Virus record (IMG/VR): IMGVR_UViG_2690316068_000002
Strand: one strand, 5' to 3'
DNA length: 64,000 nt
Source of the DNA: a virus
Lineage: Duplodnaviria > Heunggongvirae > Uroviricota > Caudoviricetes
The notes beneath the pieces are model-generated. The model worked only from the letters and a program-made list of their open reading frames with translations. It did no database searches and was not told the origin of the DNA. Of this stretch, positions 435 to 48,614 are shown one piece after another. Each line of letters begins with the position of its first letter. Within the stretch, counting starts at the first letter, position 1. Position numbers and translations under genes: made by a program.

Positions 435-3400
435 TTAGTTACGTTGAGTGTTTGGGTTGAGTGATCCGCCAGGGCGTTTCTCTTGAGCGATAGTCTCAAG
501 CGCGATTGCTTTCATCCGTTGAGCGGCATTGTTCCATATGCTTTCTGTATCGCCGGATTCAGTTGTGCTACCGTCACTATGGACGTTGATCTCAATTGAT
601 ACCGGAGAAAGAACATTTCCTCCTCCACTCATACCATCGGTACTGAGCGTTACAGGGATTGTTCGACCATCAGGCAATGGAACATACGCCTCATTCATAT
701 CGCCTTCCCCAAACAACGCCAATTGAGGTGAGTTGGCGATACCGCCTTTCTGGTATGCCCGGAGCGGGATCACGCCGTCTTTTCCGAATATGCCACCATT
801 TGCAAACTTCGGAATTGCAGGAATACCATTCGTGCCATCGGCAGCAGAACTGGTCAGATTGTTGAACCCGGAAGTTGAGCCAGAAGAACCGGACATCAAT
901 CCATCGAATCCACCACCAGCCCATACTGAAACCAAACCAGATGCAACTGTCGCGCCGAAATTCAACCACTTATTACCAGAGCCGGAAGCATTAGCTCCAA
1001 GCATTGCAAACGCGGCAGACAGAGCGCCGGTAACAGAGCTGAGGTTCTGCATCGAGAAGATGGAGTCCTTCACTGCTTTTGTCTCAGCATCTTTGGCTTC
1101 GGTGCTATTAAATAGCCCTGATACCCAGCTACCAATCGCATTTGTTGCTGTGCCAATTGCGCTGGTGGTCTGCTGTGTCGTTTGCCCCAATCCAGTTACC
1201 GAACTGGACGTCTCCTTCGTGGCTTCTCCTACCGACTTGTCGCCATTAACAGTGTTGCTTATGCGCACACCTTGATTGGCAACTGCGGAAGCAACCCCGG
1301 TGAGCAAATTACCACTCTGTGAACTACCAGCTGCGGTGGTTCCCATCCCCAACATGTTCATTAGAGGCAGCGTGATCTGCGACTTCACGACCATATTGGT
1401 GATATCTTTCAAAATGGACTGAGATAGGCTGGAGAAGCTCATCTTCCCGTTAATAACGAAATCAGTCAGGACATCAGTTAAGCCACTAAACAAATCAGTC
1501 CAGGTGCTTTCGATCTGCTCTGCCAGATTTTCGTATTCCAGTGCCAACTTCTGCGTCGCAGTCCCCGTCTCTTTAATAAGCGCGGTATTGCCAGCAGCAA
1601 TCAGTTGATTGATTTTCTTTGTATAAAGCGCCACAACTTTAGGATCAGACGCCTTATCACGAAGTTCTATCAACGCTTTGAGATTGCGGTTGTAGGTGTC
1701 TTCGAAATCAGCAACTTTCTCTTCGCGAGACGGCGTATAGCCAGCACTAATAATGGAATCCGCCTCCGGTGCCCAAGTGGAGATCATCTGCTCAACATTG
1801 CGGCGATTAAACATCTCGCGATATTCAGGTGTCGCATTTTTGAGGTCTTCAAGACGTTTTTTCGCCTTGTCGATCATCTCTTGAGTGATGAACTCGTTAG
1901 GTACCGCATTAGCCAAATCTGTCAGCGATTTCGTTGTATCGCGAAGAGACTGATCAAACGATACCGTAGCCTTAGAGCTTTCACCCATTTGCCCCATAAG
2001 CTGATCAGCTTTGTCCAGAGCCTTCTGGTATCCGGCTGCCAGTTTCTGTTGCGCTGCCTGTTCCTTCTTGGCCGCACGCTGCGAGGCGTTAGCTGATCGT
2101 TGGGCTGCTTTCTCGGCAGCTGCTGCATCCTGTTCACGAGCTTTAGTAAGTGCGGCAATGGCTGCGGCACGCTCTTCATCGCTCATTTTCTCCAGAGAGC
2201 TGGCACTGGATGCTTTCTGCAAATTAAGCTGCGTCTTGAGTTGTTTAGGCCCAATAATCGGCTTACCTTCGAAGTCCATCATCGGAGTGCCGTCAGGCAA
2301 AGTACGCTGATAAGTCGCAGAATCCATCTGGTTTCGCATATATTGCGCCAACGCCTTCTGAGCAGCTTTATCAGTTGTACCTAACCCAAGAACAGTCCCC
2401 TGGTTTGACATTACGCCCTTACCAGTTTTGGCCGCGTTATCTCTCTCGAACTCTGCCTGAGTAAGTTCCTGAGCAACGGCTTCCAAATGCTCCTGATAAC
2501 CACGAATACTGCCTTGCAGTTTCTGGATTTGCTCGGTATTGCCATCCTTTTTGGCTTTTTCAAGCTGATCATTAAGAGTCGCGATTTGCTTCTCGGTCGC
2601 ATTCTTACGAGAAGAAAGTGAATCAACCAGTTTTTGCGCAGGCTCCAGATAGCTTTTGTTTACCGTTTCACGTAACGGTGCCAATAGCTTGTTCTTTTCG
2701 TCATCTGAAAGTGAACCGTCATCATTGATTTTCTGGATCTTATCCAGAGCCTCCTGCCGGGCTTTCACGAATGTTGCCGCGAAAATCTGGTTTTCCGCTC
2801 GAATTTTCTCAATCTGAGATTCGGCAGCCTCTTTAGCCAAACGCTTTGCTACAGCGCCGTCACCAAGAGCTATCGTGCCGGTTATCTTTTGATACTCTTC
2901 CTGATTTTTTTTCAGGCGTGCTTCGATGTCAGCCTTCGACTCTTTGTGAGTAATAACACCGGCAGAGTTAGATACGTAATTAACACCATCACCAGTTTTT
3001 AATGCTCGTTGATCAGCAAGAATCTGCTTTTCGAGCTTTTCTGCGCGGTCGGCCATTTGTGCACGTTTGGCCGCCGTCATCGCCTCTGGTATTTTCCTAA
3101 TCTCGTCAACGACCTTTGAAGTTTCGCTGCGGAGCATGGTCATGTACGTGATTAGGCCAGCAACAGCTACAGTGGCAACTGTAAATGCTGCCCCTATAGG
3201 GTTTGCTGCAATGAACGCCGTTAATCCAGCAAAAGCGCCTTTAAGCCCCGTAATCGCCCCACGGATGGCGAAAATAAGAGAGGGGATCGGAGCCAGCCCC
3301 ATACGTGCCGCACGATTGAATCGGGTTACTGCTGTAGCGCCGAGGTTAAATGGAGTCTGTATGGCGGTCGCCATCGTGGCAAAGGTGCTAACCATCTGGC

Positions 3401-5027
3401 TGCCTGCGCCAACTACCCCCATGATCCCTGCTCGCATCAGTTTGAACGCAACCATCGCGGCCACGACCTTACCGAGATTAATTACCAGCTCTTGGTTCTT
3501 TGCTAACCATTGAGCAAGCTGACGCAACCCATCGATTGCCGTCGTTAACCCCGAACCTAAAGAATTGGCAAACGAAATCCCTTCGGCGCTATTCATGATT
3601 GAAGCCAGTTCTTTCATCCCCTTCGATAGAGAATCCAGATATCCGGCCTGACCAACCCGATCAGCAAATAACGTGAATGACGTCTGAAGTTGCGCCAGCG
3701 CACCTGTGTAGGTTTGCATCATGTCTTTCGCTGCGTTCTCATTCTCCGCACGCAGACCAACAAACATCAGAGACAACGCCTGTTTTGCCTCAACCGTACC
3801 GCTGGCAACGGCTTTAGTCAGTTCCCCCATAGTGATGCCTGCGGCGTCTGCCATTGCCTGCATCGCGTTAGGAACGGCTTCACCTAATTGCTGACGTAGC
3901 TCTTCCATTGACACAACGCCCTTACCGGACATCTGCTGAACGGCCACAGCCGCACGTTTCAACAGCTCACTATCACCACCAAAACGAGCAACGGAGTCCA
4001 CCAGCGCCTTCAGAGAACCATCGGTTGGATCTAAGCCAGCAGAACGAAACTTCACGAAGGAGTCTGTTAACGCCTGCATCGCGAACGGCGCATTTTGAGC
4101 CATGTCTACGATGTACTTCATATCATCAGCGGCAGCCTGGCCCGGGTTGGACTTCTCCTTATTCAACCCTCGAAGCATCACCCGCATACGTTCCATTTCG
4201 GCCGCAGCTTCAACAATAGGCTTCTGCCACCCAAACATGATGTCAGTAACCGTTCTGGCTGCATCTCCGATCTCGCCAAGCAGAAAAATGTTGCCACGAA
4301 GGCCAGAGAACATACCTCCTTCGTTACTTTTACCGCTATGGCCAGAAGCGCCGCTACGCCGCCCGCTACCACCATCGCCACTTCCAGATGTACGAACGCG
4401 TACCGGCTTGCTAATCAGTTGCTGACGTCCGATAACTTCGTCCATCTGCTCACGAACCTTTTTCAGTCCCTCGGCAGCCTGACTCGTTGTGACACCCCAA
4501 TTACTGAGTCGCTTCGTCGTGGTATTAAGGCGCGTATTCATGCCACTCACGGACACAGAGGCTTCTTTGACCTCCGTACCAAAGCGGCTTGCGCTTTTGC
4601 TTGCATAGGTCGCCCAATCAGAGAAATCATTTAGCTCTGATTGCACTTTACGTAATGACGCGGTGAGTTTATCTACTGAAGAAGTTGTCGTATCGACGCG
4701 CTCAATCAGGGCTTTAAGACCAGAATTGAGGCTGGTGATGTTGCCACGCATTTTACGCGTAGCATCTGAAGCAAGCTCAAAACCGGCAGCTACATCCTGT
4801 AGTTTATCTGCCGTAGAATCGAGCTTGCTTTCCAGAACGCCAATGATACGGGCGACCGAACCCAAAGAGCGTTCAAAGGTTTGGATTTTTTGAGCAGGCT
4901 TTGTTACCTGCTCACCAAATCGAGTAAGCAGTTTCCCCGCACGATCGATTGACGCTGTAAACTGTTTGTCTTCCAGCGACAGGATAAACTCTACGTTTTG
5001 TGACATTCCCTTGTCATCCTCTGCCAA
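435..5027 (-). CDS. Tail tape measure protein
   Basis: 1530 aa; long coiled-coil-rich N-terminal half, hydrophobic Gly/Ala-rich membrane-like segment, Gly/Ser-rich C-terminus; sits between chaperone pair and gpM-like gene. Confidence 0.85.
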   Translation of the reverse strand: MAEDDKGMSQNVEFILSLEDKQFTASIDRAGKLLTRFGEQVTKPAQKIQTFERSLGSVARIIGVLESKLDSTADKLQDVAAGFELASDATRKMRGNITSLNSGLKALIERVDTTTSSVDKLTASLRKVQSELNDFSDWATYASKSASRFGTEVKEASVSVSGMNTRLNTTTKRLSNWGVTTSQAAEGLKKVREQMDEVIGRQQLISKPVRVRTSGSGDGGSGRRSGASGHSGKSNEGGMFSGLRGNIFLLGEIGDAARTVTDIMFGWQKPIVEAAAEMERMRVMLRGLNKEKSNPGQAAADDMKYIVDMAQNAPFAMQALTDSFVKFRSAGLDPTDGSLKALVDSVARFGGDSELLKRAAVAVQQMSGKGVVSMEELRQQLGEAVPNAMQAMADAAGITMGELTKAVASGTVEAKQALSLMFVGLRAENENAAKDMMQTYTGALAQLQTSFTLFADRVGQAGYLDSLSKGMKELASIMNSAEGISFANSLGSGLTTAIDGLRQLAQWLAKNQELVINLGKVVAAMVAFKLMRAGIMGVVGAGSQMVSTFATMATAIQTPFNLGATAVTRFNRAARMGLAPIPSLIFAIRGAITGLKGAFAGLTAFIAANPIGAAFTVATVAVAGLITYMTMLRSETSKVVDEIRKIPEAMTAAKRAQMADRAEKLEKQILADQRALKTGDGVNYVSNSAGVITHKESKADIEARLKKNQEEYQKITGTIALGDGAVAKRLAKEAAESQIEKIRAENQIFAATFVKARQEALDKIQKINDDGSLSDDEKNKLLAPLRETVNKSYLEPAQKLVDSLSSRKNATEKQIATLNDQLEKAKKDGNTEQIQKLQGSIRGYQEHLEAVAQELTQAEFERDNAAKTGKGVMSNQGTVLGLGTTDKAAQKALAQYMRNQMDSATYQRTLPDGTPMMDFEGKPIIGPKQLKTQLNLQKASSASSLEKMSDEERAAAIAALTKAREQDAAAAEKAAQRSANASQRAAKKEQAAQQKLAAGYQKALDKADQLMGQMGESSKATVSFDQSLRDTTKSLTDLANAVPNEFITQEMIDKAKKRLEDLKNATPEYREMFNRRNVEQMISTWAPEADSIISAGYTPSREEKVADFEDTYNRNLKALIELRDKASDPKVVALYTKKINQLIAAGNTALIKETGTATQKLALEYENLAEQIESTWTDLFSGLTDVLTDFVINGKMSFSSLSQSILKDITNMVVKSQITLPLMNMLGMGTTAAGSSQSGNLLTGVASAVANQGVRISNTVNGDKSVGEATKETSSSVTGLGQTTQQTTSAIGTATNAIGSWVSGLFNSTEAKDAETKAVKDSIFSMQNLSSVTGALSAAFAMLGANASGSGNKWLNFGATVASGLVSVWAGGGFDGLMSGSSGSTSGFNNLTSSAADGTNGIPAIPKFANGGIFGKDGVIPLRAYQKGGIANSPQLALFGEGDMNEAYVPLPDGRTIPVTLSTDGMSGGGNVLSPVSIEINVHSDGSTTESGDTESIWNNAAQRMKAIALETIAQEKRPGGSLNPNTQRN

Positions 5028-30903: not shown

Positions 30904-32937
30904 TTACTTAACTTGGTGGCCTGGTTTAGCACCAGCATCCGGGCTTAACAGGAAGATATCTTTTCCGCCAGGGCCAGCAGCCATCACCATGCCTTCAGAG
31001 ATACCGAAGCGCATTTTACGCGGAGCCAGGTTAGCCACCATAATTGTGTGACGACCAATCAGTGCCTGTGGGTCTGGATAAGCAGAACGGATGCCTGAGA
31101 AGACATTACGCTTTTCACCACCGAGATCCAGTGTCAGGCGCAACAGTTTGTCAGAACCTTCAACAAACTCCGCGTTTTCAATCAGCGCCACACGCAGGTC
31201 AACTTTGGCGAAGTCGTCAAAGGTGATGGTTTCCTGAATCGGGTCGTCAGCCAGTGGGCCAGTTACCGGTGCGGCTGTGGCTTTCACTTCTTCTTTGGAT
31301 GCTTCCACCAGTGCTTCCACCTGTTTCATATCGATACGGTTATACAGTGCCTTGAACGGATTCACTTTATGGCCCAGCAGCGGTTGCTGGATACCATCCC
31401 AGGTCAGTTCTGTATTCAGGAATGCTTCTGCACGTTCAGTCAGTTTCGGCAGTACCGGTTTCAGGTACGTCATCAGCACGCGGAACAGGTTAATGCCCAT
31501 AGAGCAAATCGCCTGCAGATCGGCATCGCGCCCTTCCTGCTTCGCCACCACCCACGGAGCCTGTTCATCGACATAGCGGTTAGCCAGGTCAGCCAATGCC
31601 ATGATTTCACGGATAGCTTTACCAAATTCGCGGCTTTCCCATGCTTCGCCAATCACTTCAGCGGCATCAGTAAAGGTTTTGTACAGTTGCGGGTCAGCCA
31701 GTTCGCTTGCCAGCACGCCGTCAAAACGCTTGTTGATAAAGCCTGCATTACGGGAGGCCAGGTTAACCACTTTGTTCACGATATCGGCATTCACGCGCTG
31801 AACGAAATCCTCCAGGTTGAGATCGATATCATCAATGCGCGAAGAGAGTTTCGCAGTGTAGTAGTAACGCAGGCTGTCGGCGTCAAAATGATTCAGCCAG
31901 GTGCTGGCTTTAATAAAGGTGCCGCGAGACTTGGACATCTTCGCGCCGTTCACCGTCACATAGCCATGAACAAACAGGTTGGTCGGCTTGCGGAAGTTGC
32001 TGCCTTCCAGCATGGCAGGCCAGAACAGGCTGTGGAAGTAAACAATATCTTTACCGATGAAGTGGTACAGCTCGGCGGTGGAGTCTTTCTTCCAGTATTC
32101 ATCGAAGCTGGTGGTATCGCCGCGCTTGTCGCACAGATTCTTGAAGGAACCCATGTAGCCAATCGGCGCGTCCAGCCAGACGTAGAAATATTTGCCCGGC
32201 GCGTTCGGAATTTCAAAACCGAAGTAAGGCGCATCTCGGGAGATATCCCACTGTTGCAGGCCGGATTCAAACCATTCCTGCATTTTGTTCGCCACCTGCT
32301 CCTGCAACGCGCCGCTGCGGGTCCATGCCTGCAACATTTCGCTGAAAGAAGGCAGATCAAAGAAGAAGTGTTCGGAATCACGCATTACCGGGGTAGCGCC
32401 AGAAACCACCGATTTCGGCTCGATCAATTCAGTCGGGCTATATGTTGCGCCGCAGACTTCACAGTTATCGCCGTATTGATCTGGCGCTTTACATTTCGGG
32501 CAGGTGCCTTTTACAAAACGATCCGGCAGGAACATGCCTTTTTCCGGGTCGTACAACTGAGAGATAGTGCGGTTTTTAATAAAACCGTTCTCTTTCAGGC
32601 GAGTATAGATAAGCTCAGACAACTGACGGTTCTCTTCGCTGTGCGTCGAGTGATAGTTGTCATAGCTGATGTTAAAGCCTGCGAAATCAGTCTGGTGTTC
32701 CTGACTCATTTCGCCAATCATCTGCTCCGGTGTGATACCAAGCTGCTGTGCTTTCAGCATGATCGGCGTACCGTGGGCATCGTCGGCACAGATGAAATTA
32801 ACCTCGTGGCCGCGCATTCGCTGGTAACGAACCCAGACATCAGCCTGGATGTGCTCCAGCATATGGCCGAGGTGGATTGAGCCGTTAGCGTACGGCAGCG
32901 CGCACGTCACCAGAATTTTCTTCGCGACTTGGGTCAT
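30904..32937 (-). CDS. metG: Methionyl-tRNA synthetase
   Basis: 677-aa product from [29 protein letters not shown] (HIGH motif), KMSKS motif, C-terminal tRNA-binding domain; near-identical to enterobacterial MetG from memory. ORF-track upstream extension (to 33066) rejected. Confidence 0.95.
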
Positions 32938-33094: not shown

Positions 33095-34195
33095 ATGAGC
33101 GAGTCCAAATCGCCGGATGCCCTGAGAGCAATGGTAGCCGGTACGCTGGCTAATTTTCAGCACCCAACCCTGAAACACAACCTGACTACGCTTAAAGCGT
33201 TACACCATGTTGCGTTGATGGATGACACACTGCATGTCGAACTAATCATGCCTTTCGTGTGGAATAAGCCTTTTGAAGACCTGAAAGAGCAATGTAATGG
33301 TGATCTGCTCCGTATCACTGGCGCAAAGGCTATTGACTGGAAGCTGTCGTACAACATTGCCACGCTTAAGCGCGTCAAAAACCAACCAGGTATTAATGGC
33401 GTTAAGAACATTATCGCCGTCAGCTCAGGCAAGGGCGGCGTGGGTAAATCCTCCACGGCGGTAAACCTGGCACTGGCGTTGGCTGCTGAAGGTGCGAAAG
33501 TTGGTATTTTGGATGCCGATATCTATGGTCCATCAATTCCAACCATGCTGGGCGCGGAAAACCAACGTCCAACCTCACCTGACGGTACTCACATGGCACC
33601 TATCATGTCTCATGGCCTGGCAACCAACTCTATTGGTTATCTGGTCACCGACGACAATGCAATGGTGTGGCGTGGACCGATGGCCAGCAAGGCGCTGATG
33701 CAGATGTTGCAGGAAACTCTATGGCCTGATCTGGACTATCTCGTTCTCGATATGCCGCCGGGCACTGGTGATATTCAGTTGACGCTGGCGCAGAACATTC
33801 CTGTAACTGGTGCGGTTGTGGTAACTACGCCGCAAGACATCGCGCTGATCGATGCGAAGAAAGGCATTGTGATGTTCGAAAAAGTCGAAGTGCCGGTACT
33901 GGGTATCGTCGAAAACATGAGTGTGCATATTTGCAGTAACTGCGGTCATCACGAGCCAATTTTTGGCACCGGTGGCGCACAGAAACTGGCCGAGAAATAC
34001 AACACGCAGTTGTTAGGCCAAATGCCACTTCATATCTCTCTTCGTGAAGATCTGGATAACGGAACACCAACCGTTATTAGTCGTCCAGATAGCGAATTTA
34101 CGGCTATTTATCGTGACCTCGCAGATCGCGTTGCTGCCCAAATGTATTGGCAAGGTGAAGTAATACCTGGCGAAATCGCATTCCGCGCAGTGTGA
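33095..34195 (+). CDS. apbC: Fe-S cluster carrier ATPase ApbC/Mrp
   Basis: 366 aa; P-loop SSGKGGVGKSS, CxxC motif (CSNCGHH), divergent from metG as in enterobacterial chromosomes. Confidence 0.9.
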   Translation: MSESKSPDALRAMVAGTLANFQHPTLKHNLTTLKALHHVALMDDTLHVELIMPFVWNKPFEDLKEQCNGDLLRITGAKAIDWKLSYNIATLKRVKNQPGINGVKNIIAVSSGKGGVGKSSTAVNLALALAAEGAKVGILDADIYGPSIPTMLGAENQRPTSPDGTHMAPIMSHGLATNSIGYLVTDDNAMVWRGPMASKALMQMLQETLWPDLDYLVLDMPPGTGDIQLTLAQNIPVTGAVVVTTPQDIALIDAKKGIVMFEKVEVPVLGIVENMSVHICSNCGHHEPIFGTGGAQKLAEKYNTQLLGQMPLHISLREDLDNGTPTVISRPDSEFTAIYRDLADRVAAQMYWQGEVIPGEIAFRAV

Positions 34196-34232
34196 TAAAA
34201 AGGCGGTGCATTGCACCGCCTAATCAGTTCTC

Positions 34233-34622
34233 CTACATCACGGGACAATCATCAAACTCGCCACTTCTTGCGTCGTTGATAATGTGAGTGATCACACCAA
34301 ACACGGCATTGCTGCCCGTGCATCCATCGTCATCCTTTGGCAATGCTTCCTTCTTACCGGTTCTTAAATCCTCCAGATGCTGACGTGGATACTTCCGGTA
34401 TCTTTTTACGCGATATTCCCCATCCAGAGCGCATACAAGCAGAGAACCATCAACCGGGGTAAGTGAGGAATCGACCACCAGCAATGCACCCTGTAATATT
34501 CCCTCACGATGATGACTATCAGCTGCCCTCATGAAGTAGGTCGCTGAAGGATGTCTAATTATCTGCTGATCAAGAGAAATACGGCTCTCAGCATAATCCG
34601 CCGCAGGAGAAGGGAAGCCCAT
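34233..34622 (-). CDS. UmuD'-like S24 peptidase-family protein (N-terminally short relative to UmuD)
   Basis: 129 aa; begins MGFPSPAADY, i.e. at the position equivalent to the RecA-facilitated Cys24-Gly25 cleavage site of UmuD; Ser (ADSH) and Lys (RVKRY) positions conserved; C-terminal insertion relative to UmuD. Confidence 0.7.
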   Translation of the reverse strand: MGFPSPAADYAESRISLDQQIIRHPSATYFMRAADSHHREGILQGALLVVDSSLTPVDGSLLVCALDGEYRVKRYRKYPRQHLEDLRTGKKEALPKDDDGCTGSNAVFGVITHIINDARSGEFDDCPVM

Positions 34623-34638
34623 AATACTCGCCTCTTAA

Positions 34639-34658
34639 TACTGTATATACATACAGTA
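34639..34658. promoter_or_regulatory. LexA (SOS) box
   Basis: taCTGTatatacatACAGta, a perfect CTGT-N8-ACAG palindrome, 17 bp upstream of the UmuD'-like start codon and its AAGAGG Shine-Dalgarno. Confidence 0.75.
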
Positions 34659-35284
34659 TATGTTGAAGCTATATATTTTTGAACTCTATCTCTTAAAAAA
34701 GATGTTAATAAGATGCTAACTATTGAAAGGCATAAATATATACAATTCCAACAAACGTTATTTTTAACAAATTTTTTCTCTCTGTTGACTTTTGCGAAAG
34801 CCTTGTCTGGCCTAAATTGCGCGGAAGCTACTTTTTCCTTCCTGAGTTATCCACAGAGTTATGCACTTGCATGCATAACCTATACACACTATCTTAATTC
34901 GCAAGACACTGATGTTGCGGTATTGAAGGTTCATTGGGTTAAAAATAGACATTAAAAAGCCCAGTTGACTAGGCTGGGCTTTTTAAAAGGAAACAGAGTT
35001 TGCGGCTCTGTTCCTGAGCCATAAGTATCTGGCGACTGAATTAAGATTAACCGAATGTACTGGATTCATCAAGAAACGTTGAGTGGTCATACCAGGTAAT
35101 AATGACCATTTACTAAACATCGTTGTTCTCAAAGAAGATTTAAGTCCAGGTTTTTGGTGACTCTAAAACCTTACCTTAACTCGAAATCGTGCCGTAAGTA
35201 TCTGGCGACTACAGATATTGCAACTGCAAAGGCAAGCCCAAAGGTATTTGCAGCTAGGCGCGATAAAACTAAGTGAGGCCTGTT

Positions 35285-37265: not shown

Positions 37266-37921
37266 CGTGCTGCCCCCTCTTTGGTGAAAATGCCTGCTGC
37301 AATGCTGTTTATGATGCTGTCAGTGCATGGAGTAGAAAGCTGGGCATCTCCAGCAATTTTCATGACCTCAACATCCGCATATCGAATACCGAGGTGTATC
37401 AGACCGGCTATACCTGACTTAAGTCGAACATTTTCCATAAACAGATCTTTTTCCCGCTGTTTAGCGGCTTCCAACTCCATCGACAATTTTTCCAACTGCT
37501 CTTTATGCTTCTTGTATTCCTGATACGCGTGCCAAGACTGACCTTTGCGCACACTATCAGCGATATCAGCAACCTGCTCTGGTGTTAGCGTGGTCAGTGG
37601 CTGTGATGGAAAAATCATCACTTGCCCGGCATCCCAATCAAAACCCGCCTGAATTGACTGAACCTCAACTGATGGTGTTGAACCGATGCGACCAGGCGAA
37701 TGAACAACGATCGTTACATCCATATCGCGACGATGGCTGTGGTTGTTGGACAAAATACGATTCACCAACTCAGAAAATTTGGATAATTTCATGCTGATCT
37801 CTCTTTCTCTCCCCGGATAATTCTGTTGCACACATCCACACACTCGTCGCAGATGAAAACGGCGTCCCCAGCAATTAACTTTTTGACGGCGTACTGGGAT
37901 TTGTTGCAGAAGCTGCAACAA
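37262..37921 (-). CDS. Hypothetical protein
   Basis: 219 aa ORF; C-terminal coiled-coil-like segment. Confidence 0.45.
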
Positions 37922-38112
37922 AGTGTTCGCCTGACTGATAAGGATGGAGCGCCAGATGTCAGCCGCTCCATATCGTTCTTGCGACGCAATATCACACGGC
38001 TGAACTCAACCAGTTTCTCCGGGGATATCTCCTCCTCCGTAGCGAGCGTCTCTAGTCGTTCGAGTATGTTGAAGGCTTTTTCTTGGGTAATAGCAGAGTG
38101 CGATGTGGTCAT
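37789..38112 (-). CDS. Small protein with ClpX-type C4 zinc-binding domain
   Basis: C-terminal [38 protein letters not shown] closely parallels the ClpX N-terminal zinc-binding domain ([37 protein letters not shown]); no AAA+ module. Confidence 0.6.
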
Positions 38113-38510
38113 TTTCTTTCACCTTCAATGTTCGTGGCGCTGGCAAGATTGTCCTTGCGAAGAAGAGCGGCTATGCGCTTACTTCCATCCGAGATAACGC
38201 CCTCGTAATACTCACGCTGCTCGTTGAGTTTTGATTTTGCCAACTCCAGTTGTTTTGTTAGTTCCGCAATACGGCAAACATCGTTGATACGCGTTTCCTC
38301 TAATGCGTTGATCTCATCCAGTAGTGCCAGCACGGTTTCTGGTCCGGCCAGAAATTTGAAGGCGTTGAGGGCATCAATATCAACACCGCTATCTTTAAGT
38401 TCCTGTTCGCATATCAGATCATCATCAACTGGCAACATTAACAGGCGTTCCATTGCCGGAATTGCACGCTCTGCCGCCTCACGCAGTGCCTGATAGTCAA
38501 TCTTGCTCAC
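38109..38510 (-). CDS. Hypothetical protein
   Basis: 133 aa acidic ORF. Confidence 0.45.
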
Positions 38511-39007
38511 TGGATGACTCCTTTACGAAGCTGTTCAGCAATACTTACGCATATCTCTGCGCCTCTAATCAGCCCCGGAACGTTCTTGTTTGGCCCAACT
38601 TCACCATCAACAAAATCAATCATCGCGTTACGAGCCATATCCACGCCCTGCGCACGTACTTCAGCCAGAAAAGCATCGGTGGCTGGAGTCTCCGTTAATT
38701 CGCTAACCCAATTATCTCCGTGTTCCTCGGCACACATCGCATCGAATGCTCGCTCAGATTCTTTCAGGGCTGCATTCTCCGCCGCTAATGCGTCTCTCTG
38801 CGCTCGCAACTTCTCAATTTCGGCAGCCATGTAGTAACCAACCATAGCGAAAGTGGCGAAAGGGTAGTCAGAATCATCAGGAGATACGGAGGCCATTAGC
38901 AGACCATCGTGCATGTTCTGGCTTCCATCAGTGATGGATACCGCATAAGAATCGCTGGTTTCCCGTTTATACAATACGACGACCGGGTTCTTGATTTTCT
39001 CTCTCAT
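38507..39007 (-). CDS. Hypothetical protein
   Basis: 166 aa ORF. Confidence 0.45.
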   Translation of the reverse strand: MREKIKNPVVVLYKRETSDSYAVSITDGSQNMHDGLLMASVSPDDSDYPFATFAMVGYYMAAEIEKLRAQRDALAAENAALKESERAFDAMCAEEHGDNWVSELTETPATDAFLAEVRAQGVDMARNAMIDFVDGEVGPNKNVPGLIRGAEICVSIAEQLRKGVIQ

Positions 39008-39561
39008 TACGATGCCTCTAACTTATCTAACTCTTTCAGCCCTTCACGTACCGCGTTCACAATGCGTTCCAGATACTGGTATTTCGGGTTTGGTACCGTT
39101 GGCCAGTCGGCATACCACGGATCATCACCAAAGAGATTCAGCAGTTTGTTACCGACGCCGAAACAACAGCAGCTTTCTTTTACGTCATCGGTGTTTTCCG
39201 CCTCGTCCCACATTTCACGAGCCAGTACGGCGTCGATTTCTCTCTCTCTTCGTAACTTTATGATTTCTGACTTCACGAAAAGCAGATTTGCATCGTTGTC
39301 ATCGTCGACCGTGCTTCGCAGTTGAGAGTCGAAATAGCCGATTAGATACTCGTTGCTGACCCGCTTAATGAACGTCTGCACATCATCACCGCCCATAGCA
39401 AACCAAGCCGCAGTCCACGCTTTTCCGTAGCAGATGATGGTGATTCTTCCCTTACCAGGTTCGTAGTTTTCAATCATCACTCGAACCGGATCGAGGCGTT
39501 CCAGATCCGTCAGCACAAAGGAAAGAACATCTATTTTTTCGACCTTCATGCAGCCTCCCAC
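39007..39561 (-). CDS. Hypothetical protein
   Basis: 184 aa ORF. Confidence 0.45.
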   Translation of the reverse strand: MGGCMKVEKIDVLSFVLTDLERLDPVRVMIENYEPGKGRITIICYGKAWTAAWFAMGGDDVQTFIKRVSNEYLIGYFDSQLRSTVDDDNDANLLFVKSEIIKLRREREIDAVLAREMWDEAENTDDVKESCCCFGVGNKLLNLFGDDPWYADWPTVPNPKYQYLERIVNAVREGLKELDKLEAS

Positions 39562-40187
39562 GCGCTCCAGATCAGCGATTTGTGTTTTTCATAACGTTTG
39601 ATGTGTACCGGTTTCAGAAGCGCAATACCTTCAGTGACTTTCGCCATTGCGCTTAATAGCAACGGGTGTTCTATACCTATCCTCTCCATGTACTCGACAA
39701 CATCAGCGTTGGCACCAATCTCTTTGCCGTGAAAGAGTACGTCCAGCATCAGTTCTTTCTCTGCGAGGTAGACAGCTGAAAACTCGGGATCGCGACTCAC
39801 GATAGAAGAGGTATTGTCGAGCAGGTCAGCCAGCTTGATCATGCGCGTCTGCATGTCGAGATTTTGCTCCAGCTCCCGGACATTGATGATGAAACGCTGT
39901 ATTCGATTGCCGTCTTCTGGCCTTGCAATGTTGGTCAGAGCCTGAACCATTTCAGCTACGCGCTCACCGAAGTGATCACGAACCATCTCTATGGTTACAT
40001 GGGTGTCTTCGACCACATCATGCAGAAGCGCCGCGATTTGCATCTCCACGGTTCCGTCATGCAATGCAACAATCTCTCGGACAGCAACCGGGTGGTTGAT
40101 GTAGTCTTCGCCGGTATATTTTCTTTTCTGACCAACGCCACCATGAGCGCCAGCGGCGAACATATGAGCTTCGGAAATACTAGACAT
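39546..40187 (-). CDS. HD-domain phosphohydrolase, SpoT/Mesh1-type small alarmone hydrolase-like
   Basis: 213 aa; INHPVAVREIV...AALLHDVVEDT matches the (p)ppGpp-hydrolase HD motif of SpoT/RelA; no synthetase domain. Confidence 0.7.
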   Translation of the reverse strand: MSSISEAHMFAAGAHGGVGQKRKYTGEDYINHPVAVREIVALHDGTVEMQIAALLHDVVEDTHVTIEMVRDHFGERVAEMVQALTNIARPEDGNRIQRFIINVRELEQNLDMQTRMIKLADLLDNTSSIVSRDPEFSAVYLAEKELMLDVLFHGKEIGANADVVEYMERIGIEHPLLLSAMAKVTEGIALLKPVHIKRYEKHKSLIWSAWEAA

Positions 40188-40306
40188 TCTTAACTCCGTT
40201 GTTTTCTAGTTGTGGTTATTTTCACAAATAAGAAAAGGTAGAAAACAATTTATTTAAGGCCACAACTTATGGCCTTTATTTATTCATGCCGAAGGATTTG
40301 TAGCGT

Positions 40307-40687
40307 CTAATTGCCGGATAAAATGGGGTGAGGTGCTTGCCAGTAGGCTCCACCGGTCCATGTGAACCCCATGCGAATAAGAGTGTTTATTGCGGCTTTG
40401 GTAGACTCCGATTCGACACTGGCTTTTCGAAACTCTTGAACCTCTTTCGCCAACTTGTATGTAATTGTGCAGGGGACGATTGCAGCCCAGCCTTTCTCAT
40501 GACTGTTAATGACCATCTGGATGTGACCATCCAGAATAGGTTGATTAGGCATGTTATTGAAAATGTCTGCCTGTTTTTGAATGTGAAGAAAAAGCCTTGC
40601 CAGCTCCATTTGCTCACTACGAGACAAGGGATTATCAAGAGGGCTTTTTGCAAAAGCGGCTATACGCTGTGCGTCAATGCCAAACAT
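40307..40687 (-). CDS. Hypothetical protein
   Basis: 126 aa ORF. Confidence 0.4.
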   Translation of the reverse strand: MFGIDAQRIAAFAKSPLDNPLSRSEQMELARLFLHIQKQADIFNNMPNQPILDGHIQMVINSHEKGWAAIVPCTITYKLAKEVQEFRKASVESESTKAAINTLIRMGFTWTGGAYWQAPHPILSGN

Positions 40688-41391
40688 CAGCGCACCTCAC
40701 CATCTTTATGGCTGGAGTTAACTTCCGCCATTAAATGTCTGACGTAATCGACAAGAGAGCCACCTGGTGGAATCTGGCATTCCTCAACTAACTGGAAGTA
40801 GATATCCGCTGCATTACGTGTATTGCTACCCGCACATATTCTTTCTTCCCGAAGTGCATGAAGCTCGTTGATCAAACGGTCACACTCTCCGTTACGCTGA
40901 TCCACAACGGCCTCAAGCTCTGCGACGCGTTCACCTGGCGTCTTACCTTCTTTGCGTTGGATGGTAACGACGAAATCGCCAATTGCAGGGACGTTGTAAT
41001 CCAGCTCAAGGTAGTTTTTGGCACCGCTGCGGACGAACTCACCCGCGAACATGGTGGCGAACATCGCAGAGGCCACTTCGCCGTTGAAAAGTGACTCCAG
41101 ATCTAACGGAGTCCCGGCATCAAGAGCCTCTTTTGCTGTATCCATTGCATCCATGAACCGATCAAACTCATTGGCGCGCTTTTCCAGGTTTTTCCATTGC
41201 TCGCTCCAACGTTTGGCAACGAAGTCTATGAATGTTTTCGCGGATTCATCAAAATCCCCCTCAAACTTAACGATGCCTTTATCAATAATGATCTGGCCTA
41301 CCGCATCCTCTGCATAACCTTTCAATGTAAACTTGAAAGGAAAATCAGAATGGCCTGTGACGTTAAAATGCTCTAACTGGAGGTTGTTCAT
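40687..41391 (-). CDS. Hypothetical protein
   Basis: 234 aa ORF. Confidence 0.45.
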   Translation of the reverse strand: MNNLQLEHFNVTGHSDFPFKFTLKGYAEDAVGQIIIDKGIVKFEGDFDESAKTFIDFVAKRWSEQWKNLEKRANEFDRFMDAMDTAKEALDAGTPLDLESLFNGEVASAMFATMFAGEFVRSGAKNYLELDYNVPAIGDFVVTIQRKEGKTPGERVAELEAVVDQRNGECDRLINELHALREERICAGSNTRNAADIYFQLVEECQIPPGGSLVDYVRHLMAEVNSSHKDGEVR

Positions 41392-41452: not shown

Positions 41453-43138
41453 TCATTTAACGCGTTTGAAAACGTATACGCTGACTGTGATCCCTGTGTC
41501 TTCAAACTCGTTGGTAAACGACTTCCCTCTGGCATAAACGTAATTATCCATCGTCATCCAGTCCAGTATTGGCGCAGTGCCCGGCAATACTGCTACAAGA
41601 CGCCCGCCGACTTTCAGATGCCCCAGCGCAGCCAGCGTGTGCTCTCTATGACGACCAAGCGAGTACGGCGGGTTCATAACGATTTTGTCGAACTGATAAC
41701 CTACGTTGTCCTCAGACCACTTTATGAAGTCGCAGCAAATCGTGTTCGTATACCCTTTTCCGCGCAGGATATCAGCGAAGAGAGGTGCGATTTCTATGCA
41801 GGTAACATCTTCCAGATCGGCGTTGATATAGGCCAGAAGATCCCCACGTCCGGCTTGAGGCTCCAGCAGCTTCTCACCAGACTTCAATTCAGTGGCTCTG
41901 GCAACGTACTCAGCAATCAAGCGTGGGGTAGGGTAGAACTGGTGTGATTTTGTATCCGGTATTAATCCGGTAGCCACAATCGTATTTAGCGTATGGCCGA
42001 TCTCATACGGGAACTGCCAGTGCTTTTTCTCCTGCACGCCGCCAATGAAGCTCAGTGTGCGCTCAAGCTCTTCCACCTGCGACTTCTGGAGAGCTGAATC
42101 AGAGAAGTACCATACGCCTTTGTCTTTGCTTAATCGCCCGTCACGAAGCGCAGTGCGAACCGGCACGGAGATCGTCTTCTGGATTAACCCGAACTGCTTT
42201 GGTGCCCGTGTTTTTGGCGCGGTGCGACATGGCGCGGGGATTGCAGCAGGCATACTGTAAGCCAGCACCTCATTCAACTTCCAGGCCACGTCAGGATGTA
42301 TTTCAAAGTGAACGTTGCCGTTCTTGAACATCTTCACGCGCATTAGATTTCCATCGACGTTCATCCAGTCACCGGTCTGGCAGTCGTTTGCCCGATACGC
42401 AGCTGATAGCACCTCAGCAGTGCGGTTGATGGTAATAAATTCTTTGTGCGCGAAGAAATGAAGCAAGACACGCAGATCGTCGATATAGTCCTCTTTGCGA
42501 TAGTTCACACTAACGCTGTCCCGCCAGAAATCAGAAATGCAGTCAGCGATTATCAGACGTTCGCTGAAACCGTTTGTCTTATTTGTCTTGTGCGCAGGAC
42601 TCAGCGCCTTAAACAAGCCATACACGCGCTCAGAGAGATATTTGTGCCTGTCATTCAGCAAATTAAGCATCGTGGGTATGACCGTTTCTGCTTTGAACTC
42701 CGGTACACCAACGAACTCTTTAACCTTCATCTGGTAGCCGGTTCTGTCAGTTTTGATGACTTCCTGTTTGCCCTCTATAAACTGCTCGCGCCACTCATCT
42801 CGACGGGAAGCTGGCATGATCAGCAAAACGTTAGTCATGTCCGTGACCTTCCTCCAGTACTCGGCCCAAATATTCTGTTTCACCCATTCCAGATCGACTT
42901 TATCCAACCAACCTCGATTTAAACGCGAGCGATCTTCATCTGGTCGATGGTTTAGTCTCAGCAGGCGATTAATCATGTTGTGGCGTTCGTCGCCATAAAC
43001 GAAGTCGTGTACCTGATACATGAAGGCGATCTCTTTCTCGCACTCGGCCACAATTTCGTGGATGACGTTCATTTCCTGCCGATAGTCGATAGCAGTGTTT
43101 GAGTTGGCATCGTCGATGATGGAAAGGGCTGTATTCAT
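41453..43138 (-). CDS. DNA methyltransferase (amino-MTase, NPPY motif) with large N-terminal domain
   Basis: 561 aa; C-terminal AdoMet-binding-like EPQAGRGDL followed by catalytic NPPY. Confidence 0.65.
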   Translation of the reverse strand: MNTALSIIDDANSNTAIDYRQEMNVIHEIVAECEKEIAFMYQVHDFVYGDERHNMINRLLRLNHRPDEDRSRLNRGWLDKVDLEWVKQNIWAEYWRKVTDMTNVLLIMPASRRDEWREQFIEGKQEVIKTDRTGYQMKVKEFVGVPEFKAETVIPTMLNLLNDRHKYLSERVYGLFKALSPAHKTNKTNGFSERLIIADCISDFWRDSVSVNYRKEDYIDDLRVLLHFFAHKEFITINRTAEVLSAAYRANDCQTGDWMNVDGNLMRVKMFKNGNVHFEIHPDVAWKLNEVLAYSMPAAIPAPCRTAPKTRAPKQFGLIQKTISVPVRTALRDGRLSKDKGVWYFSDSALQKSQVEELERTLSFIGGVQEKKHWQFPYEIGHTLNTIVATGLIPDTKSHQFYPTPRLIAEYVARATELKSGEKLLEPQAGRGDLLAYINADLEDVTCIEIAPLFADILRGKGYTNTICCDFIKWSEDNVGYQFDKIVMNPPYSLGRHREHTLAALGHLKVGGRLVAVLPGTAPILDWMTMDNYVYARGKSFTNEFEDTGITVSVYVFKRVK

Positions 43139-48020: not shown

Positions 48021-48614
48021 CTAAGCAGCCTTCTTTGATGGTCTTTTTTTCCTGATCACATTCGCAGGATCATACCCTCCCAGACTTTTCATGACGTCCA
48101 AAGGGATCTTGCTTATAGAGTGCCCAGCGTCCTGACAGAATCCTCGAAAAACAACGAGCATACTGCCACCGGGGTTGATGTTTACTTCTACCTGACCCAA
48201 ATTGACGTCAGGCTCGACAAACGCTACGCGGCCACCAGACAGAATAATCGTCTCATTCGCATACTCTGTTGCACGCTCATACCACTTTGTATCGAGGGAT
48301 TGAGGAATTAGCATCACTGTTGTAACTCCGCGAGCCTGCTCACGTATAGCAGCATCAATCCAGGGGGAGATTTTGGAGTAGGGTGGATTGAGGAAGGCAA
48401 TTGTACCTGGCTGTCCCCATTCAGATTTCAAAGCATCACGCTCAATGCCTATGAAATTAGGCAGCTTTGCGTTGTCCTTGTTGCAGGCAACGTCAACATC
48501 AAATGTCACTCCAAGATAACGTTGAATGGCAGAAAACAGCCAATCAGGTGTTCTCCAGAGGTCACGAAGAGAGTTGTCGCGCTTTCGCTGTTTGATTTTT
48601 TCGGCTGCAATCAT
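48021..48614 (-). CDS. DNA N6-adenine methyltransferase, phage Dam-like
   Basis: 197 aa; catalytic NPPYS motif in a small phage-type MTase scaffold. Confidence 0.7.
   Translation of the reverse strand: MIAAEKIKQRKRDNSLRDLWRTPDWLFSAIQRYLGVTFDVDVACNKDNAKLPNFIGIERDALKSEWGQPGTIAFLNPPYSKISPWIDAAIREQARGVTTVMLIPQSLDTKWYERATEYANETIILSGGRVAFVEPDVNLGQVEVNINPGGSMLVVFRGFCQDAGHSISKIPLDVMKSLGGYDPANVIRKKRPSKKAA

Follow-up and report, generated by a model that had tools for sequence, protein, structure and literature searches.

On the minus strand of the DNA analysed here, a stretch of 64,000 nucleotides assigned to a virus of the class Caudoviricetes (IMG/VR virus record IMGVR_UViG_2690316068_000002) and referred to throughout as the window, an open reading frame (ORF) at positions 39546-40187 encodes what is very probably a single-domain small alarmone hydrolase (SAH) of the RelA/SpoT homologue (RSH) superfamily. 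The explanation that best accounts for the evidence as a whole, and which is held with considerable confidence, is that of an active SAH, orthologous to the PaSpo protein of Salmonella phage SSU5, that is likely to act as a neutraliser of toxic small alarmone synthetases (toxSAS). That a counter-toxin function is also the role of the protein in nature is a proposition for which the case is evenly poised. The window SAH is already known, being orthologous to a protein in experimental use and represented by copies that are 100% identical in public plasmid records.

Fold and catalytic residues of the hydrolase

The ORF begins with ATG and encodes 213 amino acids, the coordinates given above including the TGA stop codon, and a Shine-Dalgarno sequence (GGAG; 40194-40197, minus strand) lies 6 nt 5' of the start codon. 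The initial annotation of this DNA had placed the gene at the same coordinates, which proved correct, without stating its strand, and had quoted two motif blocks that are present in the translation exactly as given, namely HPVAV at residues 32-36 (40080-40094, minus strand) and AALLHDVVEDT at residues 52-62 (40002-40034, minus strand). It had further proposed that the product is a SpoT/Mesh1-type hydrolase with no synthetase domain attached, naming the HD_4/RelA_SpoT hydrolase profile as a means of checking the assignment. Residues 8-135 indeed match Pfam HD_4 (PF13328) with a score well above the cut-off (67.8 against 27.2 bits; E=1.2e-18), and matches were obtained also to the generic Pfam HD profile (E=6e-6) and to PHROG 990, described as 'metal-dependent phosphohydrolase' (E=2.9e-55). 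The match to NCBIfam spoT_relA (TIGR00691; E=1.4e-24) spans only positions 1-123 of the 687 in the model, which represent the hydrolase part. Indeed, the NCBIfam models of long RSH enzymes align to the protein only over the N-terminal hydrolase part; the synthetase, TGS and ACT domains, which regulate the hydrolase in long RSH enzymes such as SpoT and Rel, are all absent from the window SAH, and the protein has no RelA_SpoT synthetase match in Pfam at E<=1. Since no synthetase domain is matched, with Pfam and NCBIfam in agreement, the description of the protein as a stand-alone hydrolase is correct. The identification of an SAH is confirmed, and the family match is far beyond that expected by chance.

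Sequence relatives with solved structures comprise A. baumannii SpoT, M. tuberculosis Rel, human MESH1, Listeria Lmo0812 and bacterial SAHs, with E values between 1e-13 and 1e-5. The best sequence matches are to SpoT/Rel hydrolase domains (PDB 7qps, 5xnx, 1vj7 and 6s2t; E between 1.7e-13 and 5e-11 over residues 10-139), which score 52-54 bits, with MESH1 at 51 bits. An AlphaFold model of the protein, built on 57 homologues without the SSU5 sequence, is associated with a pLDDT of 97.1 and a pTM of 0.92. When this model was compared by Foldseek with the PDB, all 43 of the matches at E<=0.001 proved to be hydrolase domains of the RSH family or their close homologues. The best structural match was to human MESH1 (3nr1; TM-score 0.83, normalised to the target; rmsd 2.5 Å; probability 1.00).

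The metal-binding set characteristic of the family, H...HD...D, is complete in the window protein (H32, H56, D57 and D121). When aligned to MESH1, residues R22, H32, H56, D57, E60, D61, D121 and N125 correspond to R24, H35, H61, D62, E65, D66, D122 and N126, respectively. All of these are invariant in the 57 homologues, as is P33 of the HPVAV block, except D57, for which conservation reaches at least 90%. His32, in the HPVAV block, corresponds to the first metal ligand, whereas the AALLHDVVEDT block supplies the metal ligands His56 and Asp57 together with the Glu60/Asp61 dyad; the last metal ligand, Asp121, and the conserved Asn125 are located in a third block, DLLDN, at codons 121-125 (39813-39827, minus strand). 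The roles of the equivalent MESH1 and RelSeq residues, as Mn2+ ligands, as the catalytic Glu-Asp dyad (HDxxED) and as pocket residues (Arg, Asn), presumably carry over to the window protein. With a predicted fold that is that of the MESH1/Rel/SpoT hydrolase domain, and with its catalytic residues intact, the assignment as a SpoT/Rel-type HD hydrolase stands.

By inference from the family, Mn2+ would be held by His32, His56, Asp57 and Asp121 and, together with the Glu60/Asp61 dyad, would activate a water molecule such that the 3'-pyrophosphate is cleaved from (p)ppGpp and (p)ppApp. The same cleavage would probably occur at the 3'-CCA end of tRNAs that have been pyrophosphorylated by toxSAS enzymes.

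Comparison with the human and Drosophila MESH1 structures (3nr1, 5vxa and 3nqw) reveals that the metal ligands and the ED dyad are common to both proteins. However, identity is only 26-28%, and the window protein is longer by about 35 amino acids at its C-terminus, where the model predicts extra helices at residues 161-170, 175-189 and 193-212; MESH1 differs additionally in being metazoan and in being proposed to act on NADPH. The P. aeruginosa SAH (6yvc and 6z3n) and the Bacteroides (p)ppApp hydrolase Aph1 (7smg) are likewise single-domain bacterial hydrolases with the fold of the window SAH, but are much more weakly matched in sequence (E=2.5e-5 and 2e-6, respectively) and are encoded by chromosomal host genes. 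Membership of an Aph1-type class of (p)ppApp-specific hydrolases was considered and rejected, since the match to 7smg, at 31 bits, is well under those to Rel, SpoT and MESH1.

Orthology with the SSU5 enzyme and its activity against toxSAS toxins

The window region is 100% identical to non-mobilizable E. coli plasmids of about 110 kb, for example CP099286.1 (110387 bases), in which the SAH gene is annotated as 'HD domain-containing protein'. Identity to Escherichia phages CMS-2020a and Cyrano is 96-97% where the sequences can be aligned, compared with 86% to Salmonella phage SSU5. The CP099286.1 plasmid carries tail, tape-measure, capsid, portal and terminase genes in addition to ParB and replication functions; the window therefore represents an E. 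coli SSU5-like phage-plasmid. The hydrolase had been described initially as phage-borne, and the presence of capsid, portal, terminase and tail genes on the phage-plasmid bears this out.

The window SAH and the SSU5_099 protein of SSU5 (AFL47026.1) are both 213 amino acids in length and can be aligned without gaps, with 186 of the 213 residues identical (87%) and 93% similar. The genes occupy the same position in the same phage-plasmid family. In both elements the SAH gene is followed by a gene, 86% identical between the two, which overlaps it by 4 bp, and is preceded by genes for Eaa-like and Ead-like proteins and a DUF4942 DNA methyltransferase. Full-length collinear identity, gene neighbourhood and element family are all shared with SSU5, which marks the two genes as orthologues. 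All of the catalytic residues that were checked are the same. The differences comprise 27 substitutions, 18 of which fall within residues 141-213, and the host, which is Salmonella in the case of SSU5 and E. coli in the case of the window allele. Because SSU5_099 is the sole RSH-like place in the SSU5 genome, it is almost certainly the PaSpo SAH that was tested by Jimmy et al. (2020). The PaSpo label, which is listed as an SAH subfamily (Atkinson 2011; Jimmy 2020), would extend to the window SAH by virtue of its 87% identity to SSU5_099.

Previous work showed that the SSU5 SAH, assigned to PaSpo, neutralised all five of the validated toxSAS toxins, namely CapRel, PhRel2, FaRel2, PhRel and FaRel (Jimmy et al. 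2020, PMC7229694, Table 1). Subsequently, leaky expression of PaSpo-SSU5 was found to suffice for neutralising FaRel2, an effect that the authors ascribe to the modification being taken off the tRNA (bioRxiv 10.1101/2024.07.05.602228), and the protein has enabled the purification of CapRel (PMC9712102), becoming in later work a routine aid for taming FaRel2, PhRel2 and CapRel for purification. The initial annotation had suggested that a small phage-borne hydrolase could blunt the host stringent response or alarmone-based toxins; with neutralisation of five out of five toxSAS by the 87%-identical SSU5 protein (PMC7229694), the suggestion regarding toxins is supported by orthology.

Comparable activities have been described for other SAHs. 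A second phage SAH considered by Jimmy et al., from a virulent myophage, is likewise stand-alone and neutralises all of the toxSAS tested (PMC7229694), but was placed by the authors in a different SAH subfamily. The Cellulomonas marina protein ATfaRel combines the same RSH hydrolase chemistry with the same broad neutralisation of toxSAS, but is encoded in an operon beside its own toxin, whereas the window SAH has no toxSAS partner. MESH1 likewise protects cells against FaRel2 and acts in the repair of tRNA that has been pyrophosphorylated, and both MESH1 and ATfaRel restore the aminoacylation of 3'-CCA-pyrophosphorylated tRNA in vitro (bioRxiv 10.1101/2021.04.30.441581).

Considered together, these comparisons are consistent with a role in which the window SAH, most likely, neutralises a broad range of the RSH-synthetase toxins encountered in Enterobacteriaceae hosts. 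Its targets would include abortive-infection and toxin-antitoxin systems of the CapRel, FaRel and PhRel types, and possibly injected (p)ppApp synthetases. By analogy with its orthologue, the window allele would be expected to share the activity, which may in turn correspond to its natural role.

The activity of the SSU5 protein against FaRel, which is a producer of (pp)pApp (PMC7229694), would be compatible also with a different beneficiary. The gene could feasibly be a lysogen-protecting moron, the product of which degrades the (p)ppApp of injected type VI toxins (Tas1-like) or of toxSAS belonging to rival elements, to the advantage of the host as opposed to phage infection. Since the element persists in plasmid form, the fitness of its host is of consequence to it, and SAHs are reported to provide self-resistance or immunity where toxic alarmone synthetases are concerned (PMC9765508). 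However, a promoter scan beside the SAH gene revealed only a hairpin and no minus-strand sigma-70 match, and the lack of a recognisable promoter there counts against a gene of this type, which is considered unlikely.

Gene neighbourhood and the search for a cognate toxin

The genes that neighbour the SAH were scanned with Pfam, PHROG, NCBIfam and PADLOC, and neither a RelA_SpoT synthetase nor a PADLOC match was detected among them. Similarly, no RelA/SpoT synthetase is annotated within bases 1-106864 of the 110387 bases of CP099286.1. With no cognate toxin recognised in these neighbours or annotated over that range of the phage-plasmid, broad neutralisation of toxins is the best-supported role for the SAH. 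A toxSAS-SAH toxin-antitoxin module of the FaRel/ATfaRel type was considered as a candidate classification and rejected, as no toxSAS adjoins the gene. A search of the window for tRNA genes found none. Outside the window, CP099286.1 carries at 34190-34988 a DUF1778/GNAT-acetyltransferase pair with toxin-antitoxin architecture.

The gene downstream of the SAH, at 39007-39549 on the minus strand, encodes a phiTE_072-family protein of 180 amino acids (PHROG 3451, E=1.5e-88; PF26211 on homologues) which is 86% identical to SSU5_100. Its ATG overlaps the stop codon of the SAH gene (ATGA), the 4-bp overlap being identical in SSU5, and translational coupling of the two genes is therefore implied. This coupling, and the fact that SAHs act as antitoxins in FaRel modules (PMC7229694; bioRxiv 10.1101/2021.04.30.441581), might suggest that the SAH is the antitoxin of a toxSAS pair encoded in cis, in the manner of C. 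marina ATfaRel, and serves in plasmid addiction. That interpretation is largely refuted, and is hardly tenable, given the lack of a synthetase in the neighbourhood and in the part of CP099286.1 referred to above. Moreover, the phiTE_072-family partner is found unaccompanied by an SAH in many unrelated phages and at 60 places on E. coli chromosomes, the latter with 96-98% DNA identity, and both genes have been lost from Cyrano without replacement.

Alignment of the window to Cyrano delimits the SAH and phiTE_072-family genes as an accessory cassette of about 1.2 kb on the minus strand (approximately 39008-40210, the boundaries being approximate). The cassette is present in the window and in SSU5 and is absent as one unit from Cyrano, in which (locus 4480-4800) the shared leader, with its hairpin, runs straight into a homologue of window ORF 38507-39007 as opposed to the phiTE_072-family gene. 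The hairpin is a G+C-rich element, AAGGCC...GGCCTT, located at 40256-40276 between the Eaa-like gene and the SAH gene; the terminator-like match was scored on the plus strand. Folding of the minus-strand leader as RNA gave a z value of -3.4, and the sequence of the hairpin is identical in Cyrano, which is without the SAH. The element could be a terminator, an attenuator or an RNA-stability element.

The possibility that the two genes form a functional counter-defence or tRNA-repair cassette was examined also. In such a scheme the partner protein would, for example, direct the hydrolase to pyrophosphorylated tRNA or block a toxSAS sensor. Hints in this direction are the joint gain or loss of the genes in SSU5-like plasmids, the ATGA overlap and a tRNA-related context in one Vibrio phage. 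In the latter, Vibrio phage 1.170.O (1780-5083), there is an overlap between a phiTE_072-family gene and the end of one annotated as tRNA-His guanylyltransferase (Thg1-like), and a gene tagged COG0617, the class of the CCA-adding enzyme, lies about 0.7 kb away, although this is a single anecdotal case. Against these hints, the partner is widespread without the SAH, being found in phiTE/CR3-like myophages, Pseudomonas phage 8P and Vibrio phages in addition to the E. coli chromosomal places, and no hydrolase is annotated near the phiTE and 8P homologues. Conversely, Klebsiella SSU5-like plasmids have the SAH beside a methyltransferase, without the phiTE_072-family partner. The synonymous divergence (dS) from SSU5 is 0.88 for the phiTE_072-family gene as opposed to 0.32 for the SAH gene, which indicates that the two have separate histories. 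A functional link between the SAH and its partner was rejected as unsupported on these grounds, and a cassette of this kind is highly improbable.

The association of the two genes instead looks positional, as is typical of a mosaic 'ea' accessory region. The model of the phiTE_072-family protein is of moderate quality (pLDDT 72.5), the protein has no sequence relative in the PDB, and the Foldseek search with the model returned no significant match (best E=0.08). Homologues of the protein often bear other N-terminal modules, DUF551 being an example. Within the window, PHROG 3451, a profile of 287 positions, is split between two genes, with its N-terminal part matching residues 13-101 of the Ead-like ORF at 40687-41391 (minus strand) and its C-terminal part matching the phiTE_072-family ORF. 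This division, as read from the profile alignments, indicates modular shuffling of the proteins of the 'ea' region.

The same minus-strand array encodes an orphan DNA methyltransferase with DUF4942 (PHROG 6263; 41453-43138), a Dam-type N6-adenine methyltransferase (48021-48614) and a small ClpX-type C4 zinc finger protein (37789-38112). It is plausible that the methyltransferases of the window have anti-restriction functions. In a distant SSU5-like contig (1063-4109), the SAH of which is 41% identical to that of the window, a Tad2-like (anti-Thoeris) gene is located 2.1 kb 5' of the SAH gene and belongs to the same accessory array; the equivalent part of the window yielded no such gene. Elsewhere in the window, a second, full-length metG gene, encoding a methionine-tRNA ligase of 677 amino acids, is present at 30904-32937 (minus strand) beside apbC at 33095-34195 (plus strand), and is only about 94% identical at the DNA level to the chromosomal metG of E. 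coli.

Distribution, decay and possible natural role of the gene

Among 5426 complete E. coli genomes, 36 carry an intact SAH gene, in every case on a plasmid and never on the chromosome. For comparison, the plasmid-type metG gene that serves as a marker of the SSU5-like family is found at 219 plasmid places in complete E. coli genomes, and the neighbouring DUF4942 methyltransferase is found in 187-251 of these genomes. The SAH is thus carried by approximately 16% of E. coli SSU5-like plasmids (36 versus about 219) and is absent from the remaining 84% or so.

This distribution bears on whether the enzyme might serve chiefly to modulate the stringent response, with host (p)ppGpp as its main substrate, so that the host stays permissive for growth while the phage-plasmid replicates lytically or is maintained as a plasmid. 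Such a role would be compatible with the explanation favoured here. The SAH is closest in sequence to the (p)ppGpp hydrolase domains of SpoT/Rel and to MESH1, and is encoded in a long same-strand array with the nucleotide-metabolism genes nrdAB and those for thymidylate synthase and dihydrofolate reductase. Furthermore, the stringent response is reported to be capable of restricting phages and to be countered by phage portal proteins (2026 preprint 10.64898/2026.01.27.700999). However, absence of the gene from some 84% of the plasmids indicates that the basic life cycle can proceed without it, E. coli has a SpoT of its own, and the literature search revealed neither a (p)ppGpp hydrolysis assay nor a measurement of the ppGpp pool for PaSpo-SSU5. 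Modulation of the stringent response is considered possible, if a good deal less probable than an activity directed against toxins.

Where it is retained intact, the SAH gene is under purifying selection, which is strong in the catalytic domain. The ratio of non-synonymous to synonymous divergence (dN/dS) from SSU5 is 0.19 overall, being lower (0.10) over residues 1-140 and higher (0.30) over the 73 residues at the C-terminus. Dead derivatives in related plasmids take several forms: a truncation of the SAH to 139 amino acids, present on 139 contigs; a fusion, via a large deletion, of the N-terminus of an AAA-ATPase (AAA_28) to the SAH from E60 onwards; a fusion of the N-terminus of the Ead-like neighbour at SAH residue 76; and an IS1-flanked deletion of all but 43 nt of the SAH gene. 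A further variant in related plasmids has HG in place of HD. Loci with altered alleles include pSLy3 (3371-3543) and a second related locus (4001-4561), and most of the altered alleles are predicted from their sequences to be catalytically dead.

The circulation of dead alleles raises the question as to whether the window gene is itself a decaying, inactive accessory gene or, alternatively, encodes an HD phosphohydrolase with a main substrate other than an alarmone, such as NADPH or another 3'-phosphorylated nucleotide. With regard to the latter, MESH1 is reported to be an NADPH phosphatase (as cited in bioRxiv 10.1101/2021.04.30.441581), and a bacterial orphan SAH is called metabolically promiscuous (PMC9765508). 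Both possibilities are quite improbable, however, since the window allele retains every catalytic residue, since the dN/dS value of the catalytic domain is low, and since the SSU5 protein, at 87% identity, clearly counteracts toxSAS products in vivo (PMC7229694).

There are several observations that weigh against the interpretation of the window SAH as an active neutraliser of toxSAS. The gene is dispensable, as is evident from the plasmid counts given above, and alleles that are dead through deletion or the formation of chimeras are common in related plasmids. The functional evidence belongs to the SSU5 orthologue as opposed to the window allele, and consists of rescue on plasmid co-expression in E. 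coli, while the repair of tRNA in vitro was achieved with MESH1 and ATfaRel and not with PaSpo (bioRxiv 10.1101/2021.04.30.441581). Sequence cannot distinguish a preference for ppGpp, ppApp, pyrophosphorylated tRNA or NADPH as substrate. Finally, the literature search found no paper in which a phage SAH benefits phages or phage-plasmids during actual infection, and a DefenseFinder-based survey of phage-plasmids that covers SSU5-group plasmids makes no mention of alarmones, ppGpp, hydrolases or HD domains.

Use of the SSU5 enzyme to tame toxSAS is already standard laboratory practice, and the window adds no new principle. Its modest added value lies in the population picture that emerges, which is that of a patchy accessory cassette that is often destroyed by deletion. 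Sister plasmids with and without the SAH exist in nature and constitute a natural experiment for counter-defence by a phage SAH in real infection, of which the literature search found no published demonstration. More generally, SAHs borne on phages and plasmids are plausible broad-spectrum antidotes to abortive infection mediated by toxSAS, CapRel being one example, and to (p)ppApp toxins.

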